Source: a virus (lineage: Duplodnaviria; Caudoviricetes). Taken from it: DNA of 37,108 nt. The notes under the pieces are model-generated. The model did no database searches and had not been told where the DNA came from. It saw only the letters and a list, made by a program, of their open reading frames with translations. The position numbers were made by a program, and so were the translations under genes. Positions 4,822 to 30,742 of the stretch are shown piece by piece. The stretch is taken from positions 1 to 37,108 of IMG/VR virus record IMGVR_UViG_3300044657_000533; one strand, 5' to 3'. Positions within the stretch are counted from its first letter, which is position 1. Every line of letters begins with the position of its first letter.

Positions 4822-5273
4822 ACGCACAACTAAAACCATTAGAGCTTGTTATTGCGGCCGTCCCCGCCTCGATGATTGATCTTGTATGGGAGCAGGTAAC
4901 GCCGCTCATCCAGAAGGTTATTGATAAGGCCCCGGACGATGTCACTCTGGAGGCAACACGGGAGAACCTGATCAATGCTAATACGCTACTGGTCACTGTT
5001 TCACGTGGAGCAAAAATTGTCGCGGTAAATATTCTCAACGTGCAGGTTCTGGACTCTGGTAAACGCGTCCTGACCATCCCGGTTATCGGTGGCGAAGAGA
5101 TGCGCGAGTGGATGGATAGGTTTATGGAAATCGCTGAACAGATAGCGAAGGATTTTGATTGTACTGCAATTCGGGGCTTTGCAGCGCGAGAAGGCTGGGC
5201 GAGAGTCTTAGAGCCATATGGTTATAAAAAGCTCCACACTGTACTACAATATGAGATAGAGGAGAAAACATAA
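4818..5273 (+). CDS. GNAT-like fold virion assembly protein
   Basis: IGGEEMREW...AKDFDCTAIRGFAAREGWARVL..YGY pattern, at the position typical of podoviral GNAT-like genes before ejection proteins. Confidence 0.6.
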   Translation: MNAQLKPLELVIAAVPASMIDLVWEQVTPLIQKVIDKAPDDVTLEATRENLINANTLLVTVSRGAKIVAVNILNVQVLDSGKRVLTIPVIGGEEMREWMDRFMEIAEQIAKDFDCTAIRGFAAREGWARVLEPYGYKKLHTVLQYEIEEKT

Positions 5274-6103
5274 TGGGCGGCAGTTCAAACTCAAGCGATA
5301 GCAGCAACCAAGGGCAATTCCAGCAGCAAGTCTGGGGTGGGCAGACCCCGGCGCTGCAGAATTTATACAGCCTAGCTGGTAGTTTGTTTAATCAAACTAA
5401 TGGCGGTATGCAGGGCCAAATACCCGGCGCTGTTAACGGTATTAATCAGGTTACCAACCAAGTCAACCCGGCATGGCAGAACCAGATGCAGGGCGGCGCT
5501 TATGGCGGCTTAAATATTGGCAATCAGCTAATGAGTTCGCTCCAGCAGTCTCAGAACACGCCAAGTAATGAGCAGGAGATCAATAACATGATCATGGGCG
5601 GTCAGGGCAACAACTATGTTGACGCTATGAACCGACAGATGCGTGACTCTGCAGCGACCAACCTTGGCGGCTCTCTGGCCATGAACGACCTCAGAGCAAA
5701 CATGGCGGGTCAGGGCGGTAGCTCACGGCACGGCATAACCGAGTCGGGCTTATATAACGATGCGAATACGCAACTGTTTAACGCTCAGACTAACATGGGT
5801 TATAACACTTTCGATAAGGACTTAAATCGTAAGCTCCAGATCGCCCAGAATGCTGACCAGAATAACTTCGGTAGACAGCAGTTAATGTCCCAGATGCTAG
5901 GTGACCAGCAGAACACGATGAATACAGGTATACAGGGCGCACAGCAGCAGCAGAACCTCAATATGGGGCAGTTTGCACCGTATATGCAGCCTTGGAGCGC
6001 AATGGGCGAATATGGCAATGTAGTGGGCAGACCAACTCTTTTAGGTAGCGGGTCACAGGGTGGCCAGAGCAGCTCGAAGAGTATGGGCGCGTCAATGAAA
6101 TAA
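5273..6103 (+). CDS. DNA pilot / ejection protein (Q/G/N/M-rich)
   Basis: MGGSSNSS start, low-complexity Q/G/N composition, GAGGAG RBS. Confidence 0.7.
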   Translation: MGGSSNSSDSSNQGQFQQQVWGGQTPALQNLYSLAGSLFNQTNGGMQGQIPGAVNGINQVTNQVNPAWQNQMQGGAYGGLNIGNQLMSSLQQSQNTPSNEQEINNMIMGGQGNNYVDAMNRQMRDSAATNLGGSLAMNDLRANMAGQGGSSRHGITESGLYNDANTQLFNAQTNMGYNTFDKDLNRKLQIAQNADQNNFGRQQLMSQMLGDQQNTMNTGIQGAQQQQNLNMGQFAPYMQPWSAMGEYGNVVGRPTLLGSGSQGGQSSSKSMGASMK

Positions 6104-6113
6104 GGGGAATATT

Positions 6114-6572
6114 ATGTTTGACCCAAGAACTTTATCTGGTCCCTTCGGGAATGTTGCCCGGTTCAATGTCTTCGGTGAAGAGGCGCGTGGCCTTCTCGAT
6201 GAACTGAACTACGGCCAGCAGCCCGGTTATGGGGTAATGAAGCCAGAACTGGACCCAAATGACCACTATACAGCGACAAGTATGTCACCACAGTATCAAG
6301 GACCGACTATCCCTCAAGCGCTTCTGGATGACCCCAGCAGAGCCCAGTCATGGGGTGATAAGTGGGGCGAGATGATTGGGAGGCAGGGTGCGCGAGAGAA
6401 ATCACAGTCAGAGCTATTAGGAATGAAGCAGGTTCAGTCGGAGCAATTACCTAACCCGATGCAGACGCTGCAGGGCTTAATGTCCGTAGTGGGCGCTGGC
6501 GGTCAACAGCCATACCAGAACTTCATGCCACGCCAGCAGAACCCTTGGCTGCAAGGCCTGATGAATTACTAG
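6114..6572 (+). CDS. Probable internal virion/ejection protein with GLL/GLM motifs
   Basis: Q/P/G-rich, ARGLLDE, LQGLMSV, C-terminal WLQGLMNY. Confidence 0.65.
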   Translation: MFDPRTLSGPFGNVARFNVFGEEARGLLDELNYGQQPGYGVMKPELDPNDHYTATSMSPQYQGPTIPQALLDDPSRAQSWGDKWGEMIGRQGAREKSQSELLGMKQVQSEQLPNPMQTLQGLMSVVGAGGQQPYQNFMPRQQNPWLQGLMNY

Positions 6573-6581
6573 GAGAATATT

Positions 6582-7781
6582 ATGGGCTTTTTAGATAGTT
6601 ATCTTAATGCCAGAGCGCGGCGCACTAACCCTGCCTACGCTCGTCAGCTTGAGCTTCAGGAGCAAGCAAAATACAACGCTCAGGCCGCCCAGCAGGAGCG
6701 CGACTGGAGCCTCGAAGATTTACAGGTAGGACAGCAGCAACTGGCCCAGAACATGGGTACACGGCCAACTGAATACTTCCAGTCACCTACGGGGCAGATG
6801 GCCCAGAATAATGACGGCACAGGTATATTTGGTGATAAGAATGACCAGATGGAGGCTTTTTATAAGCAGCAAGGCAACCGGGTTAAGGATATCCGGGGTT
6901 ACGGCGCTAATTTACTCAGCGACACGCTAACCAGAAAGGATGCCGCATTAAAACCGTCCGCGCTTATGGAAAAATACGGACTTGTTCAGGATGGACTTGG
7001 TGGTCGCAAACCTACTTTAGATGAACTGGATAAGTACGGCGTATTAGGTGGAGGACAGGAGATTACGCAGAACACCTATGGCGATAAAAATAGGACTATT
7101 GACGAAGAGATTATGTATAAAGACAAGCTCGCTTTCGCTGATGATGCGCGTGAACGTGTTATCGGTTATAGCGCAGCGGGTCACTCCGCCGGGATGAAGG
7201 CTGGGCGCATTGATATTATGCTGAAGCTACTGGATACCGTTAAGACTGGTAAACTGGCTGACTTCCAAGCCGCTGCCAAGGGTTGGGCTAAAGAGCTTGG
7301 CTGGGATATAAGCGATGATGATCTGGCTAACACTCTATTTATGCAGACCCAGCTCGGTGACGAGGTTATGGCGCGGGTGGCGGAGACTAAGGGCGCAGTA
7401 TCTGAGCGTGAAATGGCTTTGTTTGAGCAGTTCTCCGCAAGCATGGGCAAGTCTACCGAAGCAAACAGAAAAATACTTAGATTCCAGAAGGCAAAGCTGA
7501 ACCGGGACAAGAAGGTTGCCAGCATGATCAGGGAAATGCAGAAGCAGGGCAAAAGCTCTATGGAGATGCAGGATAAGATCGATGCGTGGGTGAACAAAGA
7601 CGAAAATTCTCTGCATAAAATACTTGAGGGTATCGAGACTGACGTTGAGGTCACTGTCAGAGAGGAAGAGCTAAGGAACCAGTTGGACCAGAAGTTCGCT
7701 GCTAACCCCGCTCTCGCTGAGAGGTACAAGAACATGAACTCTGCACAGAAGGCAGCCGTCCTGAGTCGAATAGGAAAATAA
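6582..7781 (+). CDS. Ejection (DNA transfer) protein
   Basis: 399 aa, helical composition, KGAVSEREMALF motif common in podoviral ejection proteins, AGGAG RBS. Confidence 0.7.
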   Translation: MGFLDSYLNARARRTNPAYARQLELQEQAKYNAQAAQQERDWSLEDLQVGQQQLAQNMGTRPTEYFQSPTGQMAQNNDGTGIFGDKNDQMEAFYKQQGNRVKDIRGYGANLLSDTLTRKDAALKPSALMEKYGLVQDGLGGRKPTLDELDKYGVLGGGQEITQNTYGDKNRTIDEEIMYKDKLAFADDARERVIGYSAAGHSAGMKAGRIDIMLKLLDTVKTGKLADFQAAAKGWAKELGWDISDDDLANTLFMQTQLGDEVMARVAETKGAVSEREMALFEQFSASMGKSTEANRKILRFQKAKLNRDKKVASMIREMQKQGKSSMEMQDKIDAWVNKDENSLHKILEGIETDVEVTVREEELRNQLDQKFAANPALAERYKNMNSAQKAAVLSRIGK

Positions 7782-7782
7782 T

Positions 7783-9294
7783 ATGGAACTTACAGAGCAA
7801 GAACAGAAAGAGGTTGATGCGCTTCTTGGTGAGTTAGCGAATACGGACGATTCTATAAAGCTGTACGCTGAATCGGGAGCGGACCCCGATGTTGACTCGT
7901 TCATGGCTGATTGGCAGCAGGATGAAGCTAACCCGCCCTCTTTTGATTTCAATGCTATGGATATGGTTAAGAATATCCCCGGCAGTGCTATGCAATTAAT
8001 TGACGATACAACTTATCCTATTCGACACCCGTTCAATACACTCGGCGCTATCGCAAGTCTAGCCAAGGGCGGTGTAGAGAAATTCTCGCCCGGTGTTCAG
8101 GAGAATGAGGCCACTGTCGATGCTGTCTGGAATGCTCTGGTTGAGCGTTACGGCGGCATGGAGAACCTAAAGAAGACGCTACAGGAAGACCCTGTTGGGC
8201 TATTATCTGACGTTGTTGGGATTACAACTGGCGGAGCGGTGATAGCGGCTAAAGCTGGTGGAAACGCGGCAAAAATAGCCAATATAGTCGGTGATGCTGC
8301 AAAGGCTATTGACCCGATAAACGCCGCCGTTAATACCACTAAACTTGCGCTTAAGGAAACGCCTCTGGTTAAGGGTGACCTAGCCAGTGACCTGTACAAG
8401 CAGGTAGCTAAAACATCATTCAGTCAGAAGGGTAAGCGGACGTATGCTGATGGCCTTCCAGTGACCCCTTACAATAATAAAATTGAGATGGCGCTCGATA
8501 ACCAGATTGATATATCAAGGTCATCGGGAATTGTTGATTTAAGGCAGAAACAGGCCGATGCAATGGTAGAGATAGACCGCTTAATTGAGGAAGCTAACTC
8601 TAGTGGTAGGGTCCCGTCCCAGTCTGTATTCGATACGCTAAAACCACTGCGACAGGAGTTAGGCTCTGCCACGCAAACAACAGGAATTAAAAACCTTAGA
8701 GAAATTGATAAGGTTGCGAAAGACATAGGCCAAAACCAGCGCAGATTAGGTAAGGATTATTACACCGTTGAAGAGCTTCACGAGTTAAAGAAGAGCCTTT
8801 GGGCAGATATTAATTTTGACCGTGGACAGCAAACAGGAACGAGGGCTGCCGAAGAAGCTCGGAAAGCGATCGGCGACTCCGCCAAAACAAAGGTGGAGCA
8901 TTTTGTGCCTGAGATAAAGGGCTTAAACAGGACATGGGGTGAGCTTGAAGAGATATCCGGGGACGTGGAGCGGACAATAAGACGGGTCGAGGGTAAGGAC
9001 GTGATGGGTTTAGGCACGCCGCTTAAGATATTGACCGCTCACCAGATTGGTGGCGAAGGGTTAATGGGCAACGTGGCGGCTATTGCTGCTGGTTTAGGTC
9101 AGGCGCTTGGCACTGATAAACATAAGGTAAGAACTGCCCTAGCGTTAAGAGACATGAGAAACCGCACCCGTATGAGCCTTATAAATGATAATAGTGCTGG
9201 CGCTGAACTCTTGCGCGAAGCGATGAAGCAGTCAGGTCGTGGTGGTCGTGGATATTCCGAGGACGATTCTATCCTTGGTTTACTGGGCTTCTGA
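7783..9294 (+). CDS. Large ejection (DNA transfer) protein
   Basis: 503 aa, NIPGSA...IRHPFNT...ERYGG...EDPVG segment, ends SILGLLGF. Confidence 0.7.
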   Translation: MELTEQEQKEVDALLGELANTDDSIKLYAESGADPDVDSFMADWQQDEANPPSFDFNAMDMVKNIPGSAMQLIDDTTYPIRHPFNTLGAIASLAKGGVEKFSPGVQENEATVDAVWNALVERYGGMENLKKTLQEDPVGLLSDVVGITTGGAVIAAKAGGNAAKIANIVGDAAKAIDPINAAVNTTKLALKETPLVKGDLASDLYKQVAKTSFSQKGKRTYADGLPVTPYNNKIEMALDNQIDISRSSGIVDLRQKQADAMVEIDRLIEEANSSGRVPSQSVFDTLKPLRQELGSATQTTGIKNLREIDKVAKDIGQNQRRLGKDYYTVEELHELKKSLWADINFDRGQQTGTRAAEEARKAIGDSAKTKVEHFVPEIKGLNRTWGELEEISGDVERTIRRVEGKDVMGLGTPLKILTAHQIGGEGLMGNVAAIAAGLGQALGTDKHKVRTALALRDMRNRTRMSLINDNSAGAELLREAMKQSGRGGRGYSEDDSILGLLGF

Positions 9295-22346: not shown

Positions 22347-22543
22347 TGACCGCTTGCACTCACAGGAATGTAAACTGTTATATGTCGGCAGCCAACCCGC
22401 ATCACAGGCACTACAGTAGCGCTATGGCAGATGTTGTTGCAGAGTCGGTGTATGAGTGCAAGGACTGTGGGAGAATAGTATCGCTTGAAGATAGATTGCT
22501 GGGGATTAGGGCAGACCTTAATACTATTTTAGGTAGTGAATAG
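22346..22543 (+). CDS. Small Zn-ribbon-like protein between terminase subunits
   Basis: CTH...YECKDCG, coupled at both ends. Confidence 0.6.
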   Translation: MTACTHRNVNCYMSAANPHHRHYSSAMADVVAESVYECKDCGRIVSLEDRLLGIRADLNTILGSE

Positions 22544-23982
22544 TGAAGGAGAAGCGCCTAGTTAAGCCACAGGGCGCTGTACTCAAGCAGTACCTGATAT
22601 CAAGAGCGCCAGTTCAGATCATCATTGGTCCTCTGGGCTCAGGCAAAACAATCACAACGTGTGATAAGGTTGTTGGTATGATGTGCGAGCAGGAACCCAA
22701 CAACAGGGGTGTAAGGCCATCACGCTGGGTCGCGGCACGTAATACCTACGGCGAGTTATTCACAACCACTATCAAGGACTGGATGGAAGTCAACGGCGGC
22801 CTTGGTACGTTCAATCAGGGCGGCAAGCAACCGCCTACACATACACTGAAGTTCGCACTACCAGACGGCACACGAGTGGAGAGCGAGCTGATATTCATAT
22901 CCTTTGACAGACCAGACCACGTTAAGAAAGCGCGAGGGCTGCAGCTTACTGGCGTGTGGCTGAATGAGGTCAAGGAGTTATCCAAACCCGTGGTTGATAT
23001 GTTAGACCTACGCCATGGCAGATATCCCTCCAAGAAGGACGGTGTCGAACCTACGTGGCATGGGATGCTGGGTGACTGCAACGCTCCAGATGAGGACCAC
23101 TGGCTCTATCACTTGGCCGAGGAAGCGAAGCCAGATGGCTGGGACATATTCAAGCAACCGGGCGGATTGTACCGGGAGGGCGAACACTGGATAGTAAACG
23201 AGAATGCTGAGAACAAATCGAACCTGCCACCAGACTATTACCTGCGCGGTATGCAGGGTAAGTCCGATGATTGGATCAGGGTTAACCTAGCTAACGAGTA
23301 TGGGTTCGTATCTGATGGTAAACCAGTACACCCACGATACGTGGACTCAGTGCATTGCAAGGACTGGGCTGACTGGAAGCCGTCAACAGAGAAGGATATC
23401 GTTATCGGGTTCGACTTCGGTAGAACACCCGCAGCGGCATTGCTTCAGGAGACAGCCTTCGGCGGCTGGGTGGCCTTCGATGAGTTCGTCACGCACGATA
23501 TGTCAGCTATTAGCTTCGCGCCTGAGCTTGGTAAGTACCTGAGACGGCATTATCCTAACAATCAATTCAGGGGCCATGGTGACCCGGCTGGTGGTGATGG
23601 GAACCAAGCAACAGATGAAACACCAATCAAAATATTGAACGCTGCAGGTATCCCTTGTAAGGCAACAAAGACCAATGACCCACTTGTCAGGCGCTCTGCT
23701 GTTGAGGTCCCATTGAGGGAGGTTGGTATGGATGGTGTACCTAGACTAATAATTCTGCCAAAATGTACTACAATGCGTAAAGGGCTTGCTGGTGGTTTTT
23801 GCTATAAGCGTGTACAGGTAGCGGGTGATGAGCGTTATCACGACAAACCAGACAAGAATAAATACTCACATATAGTCGAGGCGTTGGAGTATGGGTTGCA
23901 AGGTGAGGGCGAGGGGCGAGATATCCTTAAGTCAAAGGACCCACAGGGCTACGATGATTGGAACCAAGCGGTAAACTATTGA
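22543..23982 (+). CDS. terL: Terminase large subunit
   Basis: Walker A GPLGSGKT, Walker B VWLNE, nuclease GFDFGRTPA, C-terminal DKN.YSHIVEALEY. Confidence 0.95.
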   Translation: MKEKRLVKPQGAVLKQYLISRAPVQIIIGPLGSGKTITTCDKVVGMMCEQEPNNRGVRPSRWVAARNTYGELFTTTIKDWMEVNGGLGTFNQGGKQPPTHTLKFALPDGTRVESELIFISFDRPDHVKKARGLQLTGVWLNEVKELSKPVVDMLDLRHGRYPSKKDGVEPTWHGMLGDCNAPDEDHWLYHLAEEAKPDGWDIFKQPGGLYREGEHWIVNENAENKSNLPPDYYLRGMQGKSDDWIRVNLANEYGFVSDGKPVHPRYVDSVHCKDWADWKPSTEKDIVIGFDFGRTPAAALLQETAFGGWVAFDEFVTHDMSAISFAPELGKYLRRHYPNNQFRGHGDPAGGDGNQATDETPIKILNAAGIPCKATKTNDPLVRRSAVEVPLREVGMDGVPRLIILPKCTTMRKGLAGGFCYKRVQVAGDERYHDKPDKNKYSHIVEALEYGLQGEGEGRDILKSKDPQGYDDWNQAVNY

Positions 23983-25469
23983 TGACCTATGAGGAATTAA
24001 TGCAGAAGCAGAAGCGTGATGGCTTGATGGACGGCCAGCCCTCTATGTTTCGTAACCTTGGTATGCAACCAGATAATGGCCTGATGCGATTCCTGCACGA
24101 CCAGTTCGCTATACCTGAAGACCTCACCCCGATATCACAACAGACCCCAGAGCAGCTTGGTATGAATAATATGCAGCGGTTCAGTGAGCAGGTACAAGCA
24201 ATGCACCCTATGGATCAGGCGGCGATGGCAACAAGCTCAGTGCCTTTTGTTGGTGATGCCATTGGCCTGATGGCTGACGCACGAACACTCTGGAACGAAC
24301 CCGAACAACGAACACCGATGAACTATGGCCTGAGCGCATTAGGCGCGTTGCCGTTTATTCCAAGTCTCGGCATGGTCAAGGCATGGCATGGCACACCTCA
24401 TAAAGTAGATAAGTTCTCTATGGATAACATTGGAACAGGTGAAGGAGCGCAATCCTACGGGCATGGATTGTATTTTGCTGAAAGCCCTGATGTAGCTAAA
24501 CAATATAAAGAAGTTTTAGAGGTCAAGGAATTTACTGATGACGCAGGAAACGTGTTTGATGTTCCTGATTGGCTTGACGATTCAAACATTACAGGCGCGA
24601 GATTCCCGATACACACTGACTACGATATAGACCCAGAAGATGCAATAAAGACACTTGATTTTAACATTAAAAGAGCAGAAAGAAACGGGGCTAATGTAGA
24701 TATAGATTCAGCCAAAAGGCTATCAGAAGGATTGAAAAGTGGCGCAGTACACCAAAGAAAGCAAGGCAGCCTCTACAGCGTAAACCTAGACGTAGAACCT
24801 GAAGATTTATTAGATTGGGATGCGCCTTTGAGTGAGCAACCTAAGAAGATTCAAGAACTAATAAACAACTTAAAAAGCGAAGGAGAATTAACCAGTACGG
24901 CAAACTTTGAGTCGGGGGAAAGTCTATATCATTGGCTTACAGGAAGGAAAGGTGGCGGTGAGATGGAGGCAGGTTCTAATTACCTAAATCAACAAGGCAT
25001 CAAAGGCATCCAATACTATGACGGCGTGAGTCGTAAAGCTGGGGCAGGAACACGAAACTACGTCATGTTCGATGATGAGCTAATTAGTATCAACAGGGAT
25101 GCTTTTGACGCAACCACGACTGATATGCCCTTCTACGATAATCTTATCCAGAGCATTGGCGATGATTACAAGACCAATTACTTCAACAAGGAGAAGGGGA
25201 TAGACTTCAATATGAGCGAGATGACCCCTGATGATTACCTGTCCACAGTTGACTCTGGCTTCAGTCATGGCGTGATGAGTGGTATCGACCAGAGCAAGGT
25301 AGATAGGTATGCAGAGAAGATGTTAAACGGTGAAAAGTTCCCGGCATTAACATTGGATTACAGTAGCGGCAGACTGAGTCAGGAAGGTAGACACAGGTCA
25401 CTGGCCGCAAAGAAGGCGGGAATTAACAGTGTTCCTGTCCTAACCGTTAAACGCAACAAGCATTATTGA
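23982..25469 (+). CDS. Multidomain effector-like protein: shared leader, pre-toxin-like hydrophobic segment, ART-PolyVal-like domain, ParB/Srx-like domain
   Basis: TGATG coupling to terL. VPFVGDAIGL...LSALGALPFIP; AWHGTPH...GTGEGAQSYGHGLYFAESPDVAKQY...GIQYYDG...NYVMFDD; QEGRHRSLAAKKAGINSVPV. Confidence 0.75.
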   Translation: MTYEELMQKQKRDGLMDGQPSMFRNLGMQPDNGLMRFLHDQFAIPEDLTPISQQTPEQLGMNNMQRFSEQVQAMHPMDQAAMATSSVPFVGDAIGLMADARTLWNEPEQRTPMNYGLSALGALPFIPSLGMVKAWHGTPHKVDKFSMDNIGTGEGAQSYGHGLYFAESPDVAKQYKEVLEVKEFTDDAGNVFDVPDWLDDSNITGARFPIHTDYDIDPEDAIKTLDFNIKRAERNGANVDIDSAKRLSEGLKSGAVHQRKQGSLYSVNLDVEPEDLLDWDAPLSEQPKKIQELINNLKSEGELTSTANFESGESLYHWLTGRKGGGEMEAGSNYLNQQGIKGIQYYDGVSRKAGAGTRNYVMFDDELISINRDAFDATTTDMPFYDNLIQSIGDDYKTNYFNKEKGIDFNMSEMTPDDYLSTVDSGFSHGVMSGIDQSKVDRYAEKMLNGEKFPALTLDYSSGRLSQEGRHRSLAAKKAGINSVPVLTVKRNKHY

Positions 25470-25477
25470 GAGCAGCT

Positions 25478-26956
25478 ATGACCTATGAAGAGCTAATAGC
25501 ACGACAAAAACAGAACGGCCTTATGGATGGACAACCTAGTCTATTCTCTGGCTTCGGTGACCACATAATGGGTGGCCTTGAGACAGGTTTAATGGCCCTA
25601 ACAGGTATGGCCGCTGAACCGATGGCTGGTATCGCTGGTATATTTGGCATGGCTGGCGGTGATAAACAGACCGATTTCGTTAACCAGACCCGTGACAACC
25701 TAACCTATAAACCCAAGAGTAAGGCGGTCAAGGCACTATTTGAGAAGGCTTCCCCCTACGCTGAGAAGGCTGGTGAGTATATCGATAACGCCGCAGTGGG
25801 TGTCGAGAATTACACTGGGATACCGAGGGAGGCGGTCAAGGCTGTCCCTATCATGGCTGCTGAGTTAGCTGGTGGCATTGGATTGATGGGCAAGGTAGGT
25901 AACACGCTCACCAAGAACGCAGTATCTGTACCCCGTAAGATGGGGCAGTCAGGTGCGATATCTAAAACACCAAGAATGAGTAGGGCCGAGGCCGAGCGCC
26001 TTGGTTATTGGCATCCAATCGGTGGCGGCAAGAAGACAGCGAAGCCATTCGATGAATACACCTCAACCGTAATAGACACATCAAACGCACACCCATCAAA
26101 AATACTACACCCAGAGGAAATGCTGGGCGGGGTTATTATACCGGGCTTCGGCGATAGAACTATGGCTGGCAAACTGTTGACGAGTGTTGATGGTATAGAC
26201 TTTGAGAATCCAGTGCCGTTAGATGGTGGTCATGGTTTTATGAAAGAGAACCCAGCAGGATGGGCATCAGCCAAGCCCGTTATCACCAAGCTAAACAACA
26301 AGGCAATAGAGGCTCTTGATCAAGGGAAGACCCCTTACCTGAACTATATGCCCATGAAGCATGAGACAGTGGACTTCAATACCATGATGTCTGACGCATT
26401 GCTTGAGCAGATGAAGGCAAGCAAGATAACCAAGAAAGCAAAAAAAGAATTTGACAAGAAGATAAGAACAATAAGGCCAGAGTGGAAGGGCATTGATAAC
26501 CCTGAGTCACGCGCACAACTAGACAAGACAGGCGCATTACGACAGGCATTTGTTGATACAGCCAAGCTAGACCAATTCAAGAACCAAGGCTTCCCTGATA
26601 TAGCGGGAACACGCAAGGCGCTGATAGACCCAATTCTTATGGACACCCCTCTACTTCATGGCGGTCAGTCAATAGCAAGACTGGATGGCAAGATAATAGA
26701 TGCCCCGGAAGTGCCGCACCCAACCTACCCTGCCCAGATGGGTGGAGAGTATATTGGTGGGCTTGAGCAGGGCATACCTTTGCAATTAATGATGCCTGAT
26801 TTTATTAAGGCTAGACGAGCAGACCCGCTGGACACTGGCCCAGCTTATGACTACAGGTCAATCGATATGGCTAAACCAGTGCAACCCGCCAACCAACAAT
26901 GGCTTGACGGGCTTATGGATTACATTGAAAAGTCAAAAGAGTTTAACCCCCAATGA
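25478..26956 (+). CDS. Second effector-like protein: shared leader, ejection-protein-like hydrophobic segment, uncharacterised globular C-terminal domain
   Basis: MTYEELIARQKQNGLMDGQPSLF; AEPMAGIAG...LTYKPKS; GDRTMAG...GGHGF...WAS...HPTY; ends WLDGLMDY. Confidence 0.75.
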   Translation: MTYEELIARQKQNGLMDGQPSLFSGFGDHIMGGLETGLMALTGMAAEPMAGIAGIFGMAGGDKQTDFVNQTRDNLTYKPKSKAVKALFEKASPYAEKAGEYIDNAAVGVENYTGIPREAVKAVPIMAAELAGGIGLMGKVGNTLTKNAVSVPRKMGQSGAISKTPRMSRAEAERLGYWHPIGGGKKTAKPFDEYTSTVIDTSNAHPSKILHPEEMLGGVIIPGFGDRTMAGKLLTSVDGIDFENPVPLDGGHGFMKENPAGWASAKPVITKLNNKAIEALDQGKTPYLNYMPMKHETVDFNTMMSDALLEQMKASKITKKAKKEFDKKIRTIRPEWKGIDNPESRAQLDKTGALRQAFVDTAKLDQFKNQGFPDIAGTRKALIDPILMDTPLLHGGQSIARLDGKIIDAPEVPHPTYPAQMGGEYIGGLEQGIPLQLMMPDFIKARRADPLDTGPAYDYRSIDMAKPVQPANQQWLDGLMDYIEKSKEFNPQ

Positions 26957-27143
26957 CATGGTCATCAGGCAGGTTAAGAATGGTAAGCACTAGCCCATGC
27001 AGGTCGTTTAGAACCTCTATGGTTTCAGGCTTGTATTCGCGTTGCTCACCGACCTCAGTGTCTATCACAGTATCGATAGCGAGGAATATTGTCTCGTATG
27101 TTTGCTTGGCTATTCTTAGTCGTGCAGCTTCAGTATCAGTCAT
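26943..27143 (-). CDS. Small antisense protein inside the late operon (candidate antidote/immunity protein)
   Basis: ACACGGAG RBS, same as at the 12349 early gene, with its own promoter. 3' end overlaps the effector-2 stop by 14 nt. Confidence 0.7.
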   Translation of the reverse strand: MTDTEAARLRIAKQTYETIFLAIDTVIDTEVGEQREYKPETIEVLNDLHGLVLTILNLPDDHVIGG

Positions 27144-27165
27144 AGTATTTCTCCGTGTAATAACT

Positions 27166-27199
27166 AAGTAAACTTAACATAAATATTAGAGGTACGCAA
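27166..27199 (-). promoter_or_regulatory. Early-type antisense promoter with operator
   Basis: TTGCGT-17-(TGT)TAAGTT. AAGTAAACTT 27166-27175 is identical to the site at 14619. Confidence 0.6.
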
Positions 27200-27200
27200 C

Positions 27201-29444
27201 ATGAGCGCAGTGATGGATGACGAAATGTATGAGGATGACGATGAGGGCGAGGTATTATTCAGCCCCATGTCAGATGACGAGCTTGTCAACTTCTGCCTGA
27301 ATGAAATAAGCGGCGGTATTGGCGGCAGCGCGAGTGGTGACCACGAGGAGAGTATTAGTACCCCTCTTGATTATTACTTAGGCAGGTTACCCGGTATCAG
27401 CGGGAGTAAGGCCAAGGACCCAAACGCGTCCCGGTTCGTATCAATGGACCTGATGGACGCTGTTGAGGCATCCACAGCTGAGATTATGCCTACCTTCACC
27501 ACCGACCAGATAGCCTTCTATGAGCCTGAAGATGAACGCGATGAGGACCAATCACGAACAGAGTCCGAGGTCGTTAACTATTTATTCATGGAAGAGTATG
27601 ACGGCTACACCATGCTGCAAGTGGCCCTAAAGGACTGCTTCCTGCACAGAAACTGCACGGTCAAGGCTTACTGGGATGAACGTCAATACGTCACCTACAG
27701 GACCTACGAGGACGTTCCAGAAATGGCGCTCGAAATGATTCTTCAGCCCGAAGAAGAGAACCAAGTCGTTGAGATAATGGAGCAGGAAATAACCGAGGAA
27801 GCCAACCCGGAACAGGCCAACATGATACACGAGGCTACCATGGCTGACCCGATGTCGGCGGCCGAGGCAGCTCAGTCACCAGAGGCGCAGCAAGAGATAC
27901 AGGCGGCGATGATGGCGGCTCAGGCTAAGTACACGATTAAGATTAAGCGAACCACAACCAAGGGCAGACCCAAACTTGAGTCACTCCCTCCAGAGCAGGT
28001 TATCGTCTCTGGTGGCCATAACTCACCCTTCCTGCATAAGTGTCGGTTCGTTGCACATGAGAACCTAGAGACTCAAAGCTCACTGATTGAGCAGGGGTAT
28101 GACCCTGAGATCGTCAAGGAGTTAAGCGCGTACAATGCAGATATCGATGGGTTGTCACGCTCAAGGGCCACTGATGACCAATCCAAAGAGGCCAACCACG
28201 CCTCAGTCAGAACCATACGAGTATACGAGTGTTATCCACTTGTTGACTTCGATGGTGATGGCATTGCAGAGCGCCGCAAGGTAGTGATATCGGGCAATAA
28301 AATTCTAGCCAATGATGAGTGGAACGAGGTCCCGTTAATTGGTGGTGTTGCTATTGTTATGCCGCACAAGTATTCAGGTGTATCGATGTTCGATCGACTG
28401 AGAGAGATACAGGACTCAAAGACACCGATTATTCGTTCCATTGTTGACGGCACTCAGCTATCCAGTAACCCGCGTGTTGGTGTGGTTACCGGGGAAGTTA
28501 ACCTCGATGACCTGTTGACATCACGCACGGGCGGTATTGTGCGTATGGATAACCCTAACTCTATTGTTAACATCCCTAACCCTGAGATACCGCAGTCAAG
28601 CTACGGAATGCTGCAGTATATGGATTCTGTTAGAAGTGAGCGCGGTGGTTCGGCGATTACATCAAGCAGTCAGGCTCAGGCCGTGTCGGGCGATACAGCT
28701 CATGGTATCGAGCGCGTCATGTCGGCAATGGAAATGAACAACGCGGTTATCGCCAGAACACTAGGTGAGACGCTTATCCGGGGCATATTCATACAGCTTC
28801 ATACGTTAATCCGTGAGAATTATACGGGTGAGCTTAAGGCTAAGATAGGCGGGAAGTGGATAACGACCATGCCTTCGGAGTGGAAGGAACGCACCTCAGT
28901 ATCGGTACAGATAGGCAGCTCACACGCTGAACGTGCGCGTCAAGCTGGTGTTATCGAGAAGGTTGTGGCGGCTCAAGCTCAACTGGCGGCCCAAGGCTCT
29001 GTTATGTTTACCGAGGCGAAGGCGTACACGGCTCTCACTGATGCCGTTAACCTGTCCGGCGTTAAGAACCCTGATAGATACTTCACTGACCCAGAGTCCG
29101 ATGAGGGACAGCAAGCCAACCAGCAGAAGCAACAGCAGAGCCAGCAGGAAATGCAGAAGCAACAGGAGCTTGAACAGCAGATGTTGAAAGCTCAGAACGA
29201 CTTGGCAATGGCCGAGATACTGAAGGGACAGGCCGCGCTGCAGTCTCAGCAGGTTAAGTTCAAGAATGACCAGCTACAGGCGCAGCTCAAAGAAGCTCAG
29301 ATGATGTTGACTCAGTTGAAGGACACGAATAAGCAGTCCTTTGAATATGACCAATTATTAGTCGATGCCGCTCTAAAATTGACCGAGCTAGAAGTGAACG
29401 CCGCCAAGGACCTGAGCGCACAATATGAGGGTAATAAACGATGA
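27201..29444 (+). CDS. Portal protein (P22-like, Q-rich C-terminal barrel)
   Basis: DYYLG, VDFDGDGIAERRKV, PHKYSGVS..D.L.EIQ, LSSNPR, C-terminal coiled coil. Confidence 0.92.
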   Translation: MSAVMDDEMYEDDDEGEVLFSPMSDDELVNFCLNEISGGIGGSASGDHEESISTPLDYYLGRLPGISGSKAKDPNASRFVSMDLMDAVEASTAEIMPTFTTDQIAFYEPEDERDEDQSRTESEVVNYLFMEEYDGYTMLQVALKDCFLHRNCTVKAYWDERQYVTYRTYEDVPEMALEMILQPEEENQVVEIMEQEITEEANPEQANMIHEATMADPMSAAEAAQSPEAQQEIQAAMMAAQAKYTIKIKRTTTKGRPKLESLPPEQVIVSGGHNSPFLHKCRFVAHENLETQSSLIEQGYDPEIVKELSAYNADIDGLSRSRATDDQSKEANHASVRTIRVYECYPLVDFDGDGIAERRKVVISGNKILANDEWNEVPLIGGVAIVMPHKYSGVSMFDRLREIQDSKTPIIRSIVDGTQLSSNPRVGVVTGEVNLDDLLTSRTGGIVRMDNPNSIVNIPNPEIPQSSYGMLQYMDSVRSERGGSAITSSSQAQAVSGDTAHGIERVMSAMEMNNAVIARTLGETLIRGIFIQLHTLIRENYTGELKAKIGGKWITTMPSEWKERTSVSVQIGSSHAERARQAGVIEKVVAAQAQLAAQGSVMFTEAKAYTALTDAVNLSGVKNPDRYFTDPESDEGQQANQQKQQQSQQEMQKQQELEQQMLKAQNDLAMAEILKGQAALQSQQVKFKNDQLQAQLKEAQMMLTQLKDTNKQSFEYDQLLVDAALKLTELEVNAAKDLSAQYEGNKR

Positions 29445-29710: not shown

Positions 29711-30742
29711 ATGTCCGAGAACAACGCATTCGCAGCAGTAAAAACCCTACTAGAAGAGAAGGGACAGCTATCAGCAGCGCCTAAACCTAAAGAGATTGAG
29801 GAGGTTGAAGAGGTAGAGATTGAGGAGCCAGAGCAGTTACTGGATGAAGAAACCCCTGAAGAGATTGAAGAGGTTGAAGAGGGCGAGGTTGATGGTGATG
29901 AGGATATCACTGAGACACCTAACGCATCCAATGATGACTCATTCACCCCGGCCTCACTTGCGGCCGATATTGGATGGGATGCCTCCGATATCTACGACAT
30001 GGATATTCCGCTGGAGTCTGGTGAGCCTATAAAGCTGGGCAAGCTGAAGGATGAATACACGAACCTATCGAAAGAGCGTGAAGCATTACACGCGCAGCTC
30101 CAAGAGAAGGACGAGGAAATCAAGAACGCCGCGGCTGGTGGCTTCGAGGCACAGAACCTGTCCCACGGCATGATCTCAGCACTGGGTGACATGGATACAA
30201 TCCAGAAGCAGTACAACAGTATTGACTGGGATGAAAAGGAACGAGAGGACCCCGGTAGAGCCGTGCTACTCAAGCAACGATACAAGGATGCCTACGCCGA
30301 AGCTCAGGCCAACCTAGCGCAAGCGGAGCATGATGTTGAGGCTATACGCCAACAGAACCTACAGAAAGCGGCTGTTAAGCTGATGGAGGTTGTCCCTGAG
30401 TGGAAGCAGCCAGAGGTGAGACAGGCTGACCAAGCGGAGATCAGGCAGCTAATGCTGAATGAGGGCTACAGCAATCAGATGATATCCAGTATTGCGGACC
30501 CCATTGCATTGAAGCTATTGCGTGAGCTTGCCGGGTATCGCAAGAAGTTCGCAAGCGCGAAGGATGCCGTGAAGCGTGTCAGGAAAGCACCGAAGGTCCT
30601 GAGTGCTACGGGTAGACGTAAGCCAGTGGATAATACAAAGGAAGTGGCAACGCTTAAGAACAAGGCTAAGAATGCACGGCCAAGTGAGAAGCGGTCAGCT
30701 GAACTTGACGCGGTTAAGGCTATTATTGCAAACCACCGATAA
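29711..30742 (+). CDS. Capsid scaffolding protein
   Basis: Acidic N-terminus, coiled coil, IDWDE..REDP, VPEW, basic C-terminus, directly before the capsid gene. Confidence 0.85.
   Translation: MSENNAFAAVKTLLEEKGQLSAAPKPKEIEEVEEVEIEEPEQLLDEETPEEIEEVEEGEVDGDEDITETPNASNDDSFTPASLAADIGWDASDIYDMDIPLESGEPIKLGKLKDEYTNLSKEREALHAQLQEKDEEIKNAAAGGFEAQNLSHGMISALGDMDTIQKQYNSIDWDEKEREDPGRAVLLKQRYKDAYAEAQANLAQAEHDVEAIRQQNLQKAAVKLMEVVPEWKQPEVRQADQAEIRQLMLNEGYSNQMISSIADPIALKLLRELAGYRKKFASAKDAVKRVRKAPKVLSATGRRKPVDNTKEVATLKNKAKNARPSEKRSAELDAVKAIIANHR

Follow-up and report, generated by a model that had tools for sequence, protein, structure and literature searches.

The window analysed here is the whole 37,108-base virus record IMGVR_UViG_3300044657_000533, a phage genome that is 95% complete and in which Pfam and PHROG profile scans identify terS, terL, an SU10-type portal, a scaffold, a coat protein and an adaptor. 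We focused on two tandem open reading frames (ORFs), ORF1 and ORF2, which are placed between terL and the portal gene, with the ATG of ORF1 overlapping the terL stop (Table 1). An original prediction for this DNA had described two large proteins starting at 23982 and 25478 that share a short N-terminal leader, diverge into unrelated cargos and form a MuF-independent virion-delivery system. Both reading frames hold up, with ATG starts and lengths of 495 and 492 aa, and the terL-ORF1, ORF1-ORF2 and ORF2-portal junctions are all bridged by contigs from two estuary runs, from which this DNA may derive. The cassette had been drawn as 23982..27199, which is too long: ORF2 ends at 26956, and the remainder is taken up by a separate 66-aa minus-strand ORF. 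Our domain analysis indicates that each protein is built in three tiers, a leader, a Gly/Ala helical module and a cargo, not two.

Table 1. Features of the terL-portal locus in the window.
Feature	Position	Strand	Remarks
Terminase large subunit (terL)	22543..23982	+	phrog_2 E 1e-13, PF03237; stop overlaps ORF1 start
ORF1, 495 aa: leader, helical module A, predicted ART, putative ParB-like domain	23982..25469	+	ATG start
Leader copy 1, ORF1 residues 1-27	23982..24062	+	predicted helix, then G-L-M-D-G-Q-P-S
Helical module A, ORF1 residues 76-129, Gly/Ala hairpin	24207..24368	+	19 HMM matches
Predicted polyvalent-type ADP-ribosyltransferase (ART) domain, residues 132-370, variable insertions	24375..25091	+	PF18760 E 1.5e-5; H136, Y164, D347
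ParB/sulfiredoxin-like domain (tentative), residues 405-491, GRHR motif	25194..25454	+	weak profile matches
ORF2, 492 aa: leader, helical module B, predicted YTH/EVE-like domain	25478..26956	+	ATG start
Leader copy 2, ORF2 residues 1-27	25478..25558	+	helix 3-12 in model
Helical module B, ORF2 residues 34-130	25577..25867	+	8 HMM matches
Domain without family name, residues 161-490, predicted PUA-superfamily (YTH/EVE-like) core, hairpin and helical insertions	25958..26947	+	model pLDDT 95.4
66-aa ORF	26943..27143	-	no family; not shown part of cassette
SU10-type portal	27201..29444	+	PF23899 E 3e-140
Head scaffolding protein	29711..30742	+	phrog_3927 E 1.6e-12

The leader is conserved as a peptide. 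ORF1 and ORF2 are identical at 17 of their first 23 residues (18 of 27 over a longer span, E 5e-9) and unrelated past residue 27, the next-best local match between them having an E value of 0.53. Among 2,901 pairs of unrelated co-resident phage ORFs the best ungapped 23-residue identity is 9, as against 17 here, and the local score of the leader pair, 102, compares with a maximum of 47 in 2,543 pairs. DNA identity is 42 of 69, 12 of the 16 identical degenerate residues within the first 27 are encoded by different codons, and nonsynonymous divergence (dN) is 0.24-0.31 with synonymous divergence (dS) saturated. With synonymous sites at saturation and 17 of 23 residues unchanged, these comparisons indicate that the leader is under purifying selection as a peptide. 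The leader is present in exactly two copies in the genome, and the DNA upstream of ORF1 differs from that upstream of ORF2. The original claims of a protein-level conservation with synonymous codon change, and of complete divergence thereafter, are thus borne out. As a separate observation, the two copies differ in codon at seven of the eight identical residues with two-fold degeneracy, where saturation predicts a switch at half of them; the excess is possibly due to selection against a recombinogenic DNA repeat, or to chance.

The second tier consists of the Gly/Ala-rich segments, which had been described as hydrophobic; they are real but just moderately hydrophobic (Kyte-Doolittle 19-residue maxima of 1.27-1.45). 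The helical modules A and B that they define are unrelated to each other, and iterated profiles over 1,846 collected proteins place both ahead of a variety of cargos. Module A, in 19 proteins, precedes ORF1-type ARTs, the ORF2 domain, other ARTs, an ART joined to GNAT, or LPD23; module B, in eight, precedes the ORF2 domain, an ART, a methyltransferase or LPD23. A natural chimera (L101:56-1510) provides the only third combination, in which the first 160 residues are of ORF2 type (48% identical over 162 columns, aligning to ORF2 from residue 1) and are followed by an ORF1-type ART; a "diverged leader" at its N terminus was rejected, as it had no score on the leader hidden Markov model (HMM). Judged by these architectures, the helical modules, and not this leader, are the parts that swap cargo widely. 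A likeness of module A to the PT-TG pre-toxin domain is a lead only: it comes from one row of the feature atlas (0.83) and one ORF2 relative at E 0.038, and PF14449 has no match in the genome. We also observed a second common N-terminal motif (13 of 19 residues identical, E 2e-5) in L097:1054-2259 and protein P0096, which stands ahead of module A and an ART in one and of module B and a methyltransferase in the other.

The cargo of ORF1 is predicted to be a polyvalent-type ART of the H-Y-D kind. PF18760 matches it at 26.2 bits against a cut-off of 31.2, with the first third of the profile matched, owing to insertions, and the triad H136, Y164 and D347 is invariant in 13 aligned sequences, the strands being assigned by motif. 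H-Y-D in strands 1, 2 and 5 is the triad defined for the ART-PolyVal/Tox-ART-HYD2 clade (PMC5512222). A search of ORF1 against PDB sequences gave no match. G+C content at third codon positions falls from 0.56 in the N-terminal part of ORF1 to 0.36 in the cargo, with the drop at the module-cargo border, as expected for a mosaic. An estimated ~2,500 viral stretches match this ART; when the neighbours of 57 of 87 representatives were scanned, the ART gene lay directly between terL and portal in at least 6 of the 80 kept loci (L114, L116, L119, L125, L126 and L133). The C-terminal domain of ORF1, in which GRHR is invariant in five sequences, has no Pfam match and gives weak matches to SbnI, sulfiredoxin and Noc (E 0.08-1.1; six of nine rows of ParB/Srx type); we tentatively regard it as ParB-like. 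The original expectation of effector cargos is supported, the cargos being effector domains of polyvalent type. Two side observations concern these ARTs. At window positions 24329-24838, run X1 has a contig of low depth that agrees with the ART at its conserved ends but not in the letters between, which indicates a related phage with another insertion in the domain. At L035:1929-5111, a gene with weak ART likeness is followed directly by the portal gene, and the two have the same start, MATQFP, which points to capture of the portal N-terminus.

The cargo of ORF2 is the less familiar of the two. No Pfam family, deposited LPDs included, was found in its 72 members, none of which matches the YTH (PF04146) or EVE (PF01878) profile at E<=1, so that by sequence the domain is not a member of either family; the feature atlas gave no usable match. 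It is common in aquatic phages, with 94 protein matches that carry many different N-termini, 267 viral stretches and 17 BFVD structures (E<=1e-3), none of these with a functional name for the domain and all from tailed phages where the organism is shown. The domain-only model (pLDDT 95.4, pTM 0.91, 65 sequences) was compared with 48,161 chains, and the top ten comprised nine YTH domains and PH1033, which we take to be EVE-type. All rows with Z>=5.7 are YTH or PH1033, after which come ASCH domains and the EVE nuclease VcaM4I. The best match, a YTH domain, aligns 140 of 157 residues with a root-mean-square deviation of 3.5 and a Z of 8.3, which is middling, since models without a clear match typically reach a best Z of 7-8. 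A full-length ORF2 model gives the same ranking (Z 9.0), and the coherence of the match list over two independent models leads us to predict a PUA-type barrel. Three further results, like the middling Z, weigh against this assignment: Foldseek against the PDB returned no match at E<=1e-3 for either model, a profile search against the PDB found no YTH match, and no link to YTH was found at sequence level. Short-motif matches of the W262 segment in the PDB (a lectin "WAS" repeat and RavD) were discarded.

What this domain might do has two answers of similar standing. EVE and YTH domains bind modified bases by base flipping, and in prokaryotes they serve mainly host restriction (PMC7897488, PMC7641849); this role motivates the hypothesis that the ORF2 domain is a reader of modified bases, to which we give somewhat less than even odds. 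In 76 dereplicated sequences W262 and Y417 are invariant and H414 is conserved at 0.99; D226-R227, G250-G251, R355 and R379 are also conserved, and R446 and R447 are near-invariant. About as likely is an enzyme on a PUA core (a nuclease, hydrolase or base-editing enzyme) and not a passive reader: the domain, at 330 residues, is twice the size of a YTH domain, and the near-invariant charged residues D226, R227, R355, R379, H414, R446 and R447 lie outside the aromatic pair. ASCH domains, some of which are enzymes, are among the fold matches, and no DNA methyltransferase was found among the window proteins scanned, which leaves a shielding of the phage's own methyl marks without support. Set against an enzyme, every one of the best fold matches is to a reader (YTH, EVE), and W262 presumably sits in a strand-helix-strand setting like that of the first YTH cage tryptophan. 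The ART and the YTH-like domain are also found together, as neighbouring tandem genes or fused, in lineages unrelated to one another (L062:6717-8993, L068:3137-5413, L147, L100, L160, L178, P0007 and P0066-P0068), which hints at a functional pairing. Our literature search found no account of a phage YTH-like virion domain; subscription papers were largely outside its coverage, as were the online data of PMC5512222, where the domain may stand under a different label.

On the reach of the leader the original prediction is not supported. It had a short leader addressing interchangeable effectors, which was to be checked by looking for fusions to many different C-termini. A profile of 35 columns built from four sequences, and hence of low reach, was run against 1.84 billion representatives and gave four matches at E<=1e-3: two orthologues and two chance matches to repeat proteins (P0104 and P0105), which were discarded. 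Viral contigs yielded 148 pattern matches, none confirmed; the search with the ORF1 N-terminus gave one match, also not confirmed, the best hit in INPHARED was a single match at E 4, and ORF2 residues 1-150 recovered the orthologue alone. Terminase relatives, followed as a path to syntenic loci, led to 16 loci at 36-44% identity, none with ORF1 or ORF2 genes. Within the sensitivity tested, the leader therefore occurs with these two C-termini alone, one of the outcomes that the original prediction had named as counting against it.

The design, as opposed to the peptide, does recur. The ORF2 domain led to the cultured Roseobacter phage CRP-902 (L193:6617-11868), in which four genes after the portal, gp72, gp68, gp66 and gp65, share a MANP-type leader that differs from that of the window. 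Their bodies are unrelated (YTH-like in gp72, E 8e-47; GNAT in gp68; unknown in gp66; PBECR5 in gp65), with nothing in common past residue 25, and pairings among the four give the six highest N-terminal scores (75-39) out of 3,003 pairs, the sixth being tied with background. In CRP-901 (L196:6852-10560; gp68 and gp66), gp68 fills the slot of gp72 and keeps the leader (48% identity over residues 1-29) on an unrelated body, which has no Pfam match and which, by eye, we take to resemble a helix-hairpin-helix DNA glycosylase. A third, shorter case is found in L132, where the portal is followed by genes for an ART and a PBECR5 protein, each of which starts MASMREL. The idea of one leader serving interchangeable effectors thus stands as a design with natural cargo exchange in CRP-901/902, but with a different peptide: these comparisons indicate that each lineage has leaders of its own and that modules and cargos move between lineages. 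The available text of the paper on these phages (PMC10149686) mentions neither the CRP-902 leader genes nor virion proteomics, and we found no account of a shared leader in such podophage cassettes in literature from which subscription papers were largely outside coverage.

Evidence that such proteins enter virions comes from a relative. Gp5 of Sulfitobacter phage phiGT1, whose gene lies between the portal and scaffold genes, is 37% identical to the ORF1 ART over 245 columns, keeps the triad and is without MuF. It was detected in virions with 12 spectra and a ratio of spectral count to molecular weight of 0.29, compared with 0.67 for the portal and <0.2 for contaminants (PMC10386132 Table S3). 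ORF1-type ARTs are also embedded in internal-virion or "structural" proteins of Autographiviridae. In the window, MuF (PF04233) has no match at E<=1 in the 95%-complete genome, the positive control having matched 8 of 14, and ORF1 and ORF2 have no Pfam or PHROG match to MuF. The absence of a recognisable MuF domain was thus correctly predicted. MuF-independent delivery is favoured in turn by a MuF-less ART relative in purified virions; what is not supported is a wide range of C-termini behind this leader.

The best reading of the locus, to which we assign a probability of about 0.55, is that ORF1 and ORF2 are MuF-independent accessory head cargo of an SU10-type podophage, loaded by the leader and ejected with the DNA. 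It builds on the head-operon position, the selection on the leader, the three-tier build and the lack of MuF, which are its demonstrated parts. That the two proteins are virion cargo at all is probable; that the leader is the loading signal is only a little better than an even bet. Since the start of ORF1 overlaps the terL stop, both proteins would be made late, alongside terL and portal. The leader helix would then bind the prohead core, with the scaffold as its most probable partner on the example of T4 and P22, and the Gly/Ala helical modules would serve as exchangeable linkers that ease passage alongside ejection proteins. Once in the next cell, the H-Y-D ART would modify a target of the host with NAD+ as substrate, the putative ParB-like domain may act on DNA or nucleotides, and the YTH/EVE-like domain could bind a modified base in DNA or RNA via W262 and Y417, blunting methylation-linked defence. 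By the parallel with P22 and T4 (PMC8402733, PMC10229621), the scaffold is the likely docking partner; a predicted complex of scaffold and leader scored 0.01, which is no evidence either way. It is doubtful, although conceivable, that the pattern is general, with small aquatic podophages loading swappable effectors through lineage-specific address peptides without MuF, and with an injected YTH/EVE-fold counter-defence protein that reads or acts on methylated bases as a common payload.

Several points tell against this reading. The exact leader is found just on the two orthologues, and phiGT1 gp5 is packaged yet has no such leader, so that a shared leader is not required in this family. Virion evidence amounts to one low-count entry for a 37%-identical relative, with none for the ORF2 domain, and the Flavobacterium "structural protein" label has no proteomics behind it in the available part of its source. 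Shared leaders are a minority: in a set of 76 effector genes, 4 reached a score of >=33 against a neighbouring gene (0.5 expected). In addition, P22 gp7 remains functional after loss of its first 20 residues (PMC8402733), and the likeness of the leader to T4 peptides described below covers seven residues, too few to establish homology, and may be convergence.

The alternative that survives best, although we hold it to be unlikely, keeps both proteins as cargo but assigns the loading to the Gly/Ala modules, or to a general G-L-L-D-like character of the N-terminus that ejection proteins also have; the leader would act afterwards, in passage out of the head by the portal-tail channel, in pairing ORF1 with ORF2, or in processing. 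It is modules A and B that stand ahead of many cargos, which this leader does not, packaging of phiGT1 gp5 does not depend on this leader, and P22 gp7 binds via residues 21-154 (PMC8402733). After dereplication, effector N-termini are enriched in a loose GLL-type motif (12 of 76 versus 18 of 390, p 0.001), most of its non-effector carriers looking like ejection proteins. However, the strict GLLD motif is not significant on the same footing (6 of 76 versus 12 of 390, p 0.09), the general GLLD signal seen before dereplication (33 of 119 versus 25 of 521) being weak afterwards and kept just as a rival; modules A and B are mutually unrelated, and the CRP-902 genes have the leader alone in common.

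Rather less probable is that the proteins are not packaged and are late factors acting in the infected cell, with the leader docking them on a shared intracellular partner such as the terminase or the portal; they might guard DNA packaging from host immunity or exclude superinfecting phages. Position in a packaging operon fits either reading, this alternative is named for ARTs in PMC9503650, and the virion evidence comes from relatives, not from this phage. The genomic context of the ORF2 domain cuts both ways: in the best 80 of its 267 viral loci, 37 are near head genes, 28 follow an ejection-type cluster within two genes, 14 are elsewhere, as would suit unpackaged factors, and one is uncalled, these loci being redundant, the ejection-cluster label drawn from position and two of the terS labels inferred, all of which lessens what the counts can say for packaging. 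Against unpackaged factors stand, besides the 28 genes behind ejection-type clusters, the detection of phiGT1 gp5 in virions and the same ART embedded in internal virion proteins. Finally, the shared start could be left over from a duplicated gene or a captured 5' end and be retained for expression or stability, not for targeting; this would suit a leader in just two adjacent genes of one lineage, but is very improbable given saturated silent sites with 17 of 23 residues kept, differing upstream DNA and the same design with a different peptide in CRP-901/902.

The 66-aa minus-strand ORF between ORF2 and the portal gene is acidic and without a family. A role as an immunity gene found no support, the ORF being unrelated to the one that follows CRP-902 gp72; no common immunity gene was found in the locus maps or in that comparison. 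Elsewhere in the window, at 5273-9294, four genes without a family match are sited like P22-type ejection proteins; genes 6114 and 6582 have GLLD/GFLD-like motifs near their starts, and gene 7783 ends GLLGF. From position and composition the cluster looks like ejection proteins.

How non-essential effectors are loaded into the heads of MuF-less podoviruses is not settled, and in the available literature proof of capsid-targeting peptides is confined to T4 and P1. The present locus, together with the cultured phages CRP-901 and CRP-902, supplies a candidate tag of 20-27 residues and a natural cargo swap, which would, if the leader reading is right, give a portable tag for loading podoviral heads. 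Should the ORF2 domain bind modified bases, it would represent a new class of counter-defence protein that is injected, with a modification sensor of the host type put to use as a counter-defence that the virion delivers. It has the same predicted core fold as the YTH/EVE readers, and an invariant Trp and Tyr, but differs from them in its low identity (9-13%), its large insertions, its lack of a fused nuclease and its location in phage structural modules, not host restriction systems.

Among known delivery systems, MuF polymorphic toxins likewise carry variable C-terminal effectors in the head module (PMC5576092), but ORF1 and ORF2 lack MuF and no shared immunity gene was found, and judged by these searches they are not MuF toxins. 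The polyvalent proteins (Iyer et al. 2017, PMC5512222; PMC9503650) are closer: H-Y-D ART, ParB-like, GNAT, PBECR5 and LPD23 domains are likewise shuffled in the terminase-portal region and predicted to be injected. ORF1 has their trait of combined domains (ART and ParB-like), and its relatives, near virion genes, fuse ART with the ORF2 domain, GNAT or LPD23; the difference is that ORF1 and ORF2 are small, with one to two cargos. The terms "PUA" and "ASCH" are absent from the main text of PMC5512222. In P22, ejection proteins need the scaffold, not the portal (PMC8402733). In P1, the first 30 residues of DarB (N30) suffice for packaging (PMC9024508), which by description is a signal of similar length loading a polyvalent-type protein without MuF; according to the same paper the Dar proteins have no common N-terminal consensus, whereas ORF1 and ORF2 have one.

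The nearest parallel is the capsid-targeting sequence (CTS) of the T4 internal proteins IPI, IPII and IPIII, also a short N-terminal peptide common to proteins with unrelated bodies, of which 10 residues suffice for packaging in dependence on positions 4 and 7 (PMC9026906, PMC10229621). IPII and IPIII start MKTYQEFIAE (NC_000866); ORF2 TYEELIA matches TYQEFIA at five of seven positions, T4 positions 4 and 7 align with ORF2 Y3 and L6, and a TY[QE]E[FL]IA-type pattern occurs in 3 of 1,019 N-termini, all with the window-type leader. T4 differs in being a large myophage in which a propeptide of 10 residues is cleaved off by the gp21 protease, whereas here a 37-kb SU10-type podophage has a conserved stretch of 23-27 residues on cargos of ~490 aa; general scans of the head-module proteins, with no search aimed at proteases, found no head protease. 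By analogy, the leader likely works like a T4 CTS that loads polyvalent-type effectors. Loading by a shared leader is as an idea already known, with the T4 CTS and P1 DarB N30 as tested examples, and the new parts here are the YTH-like cargo and the cultured CRP-901/902 test system.

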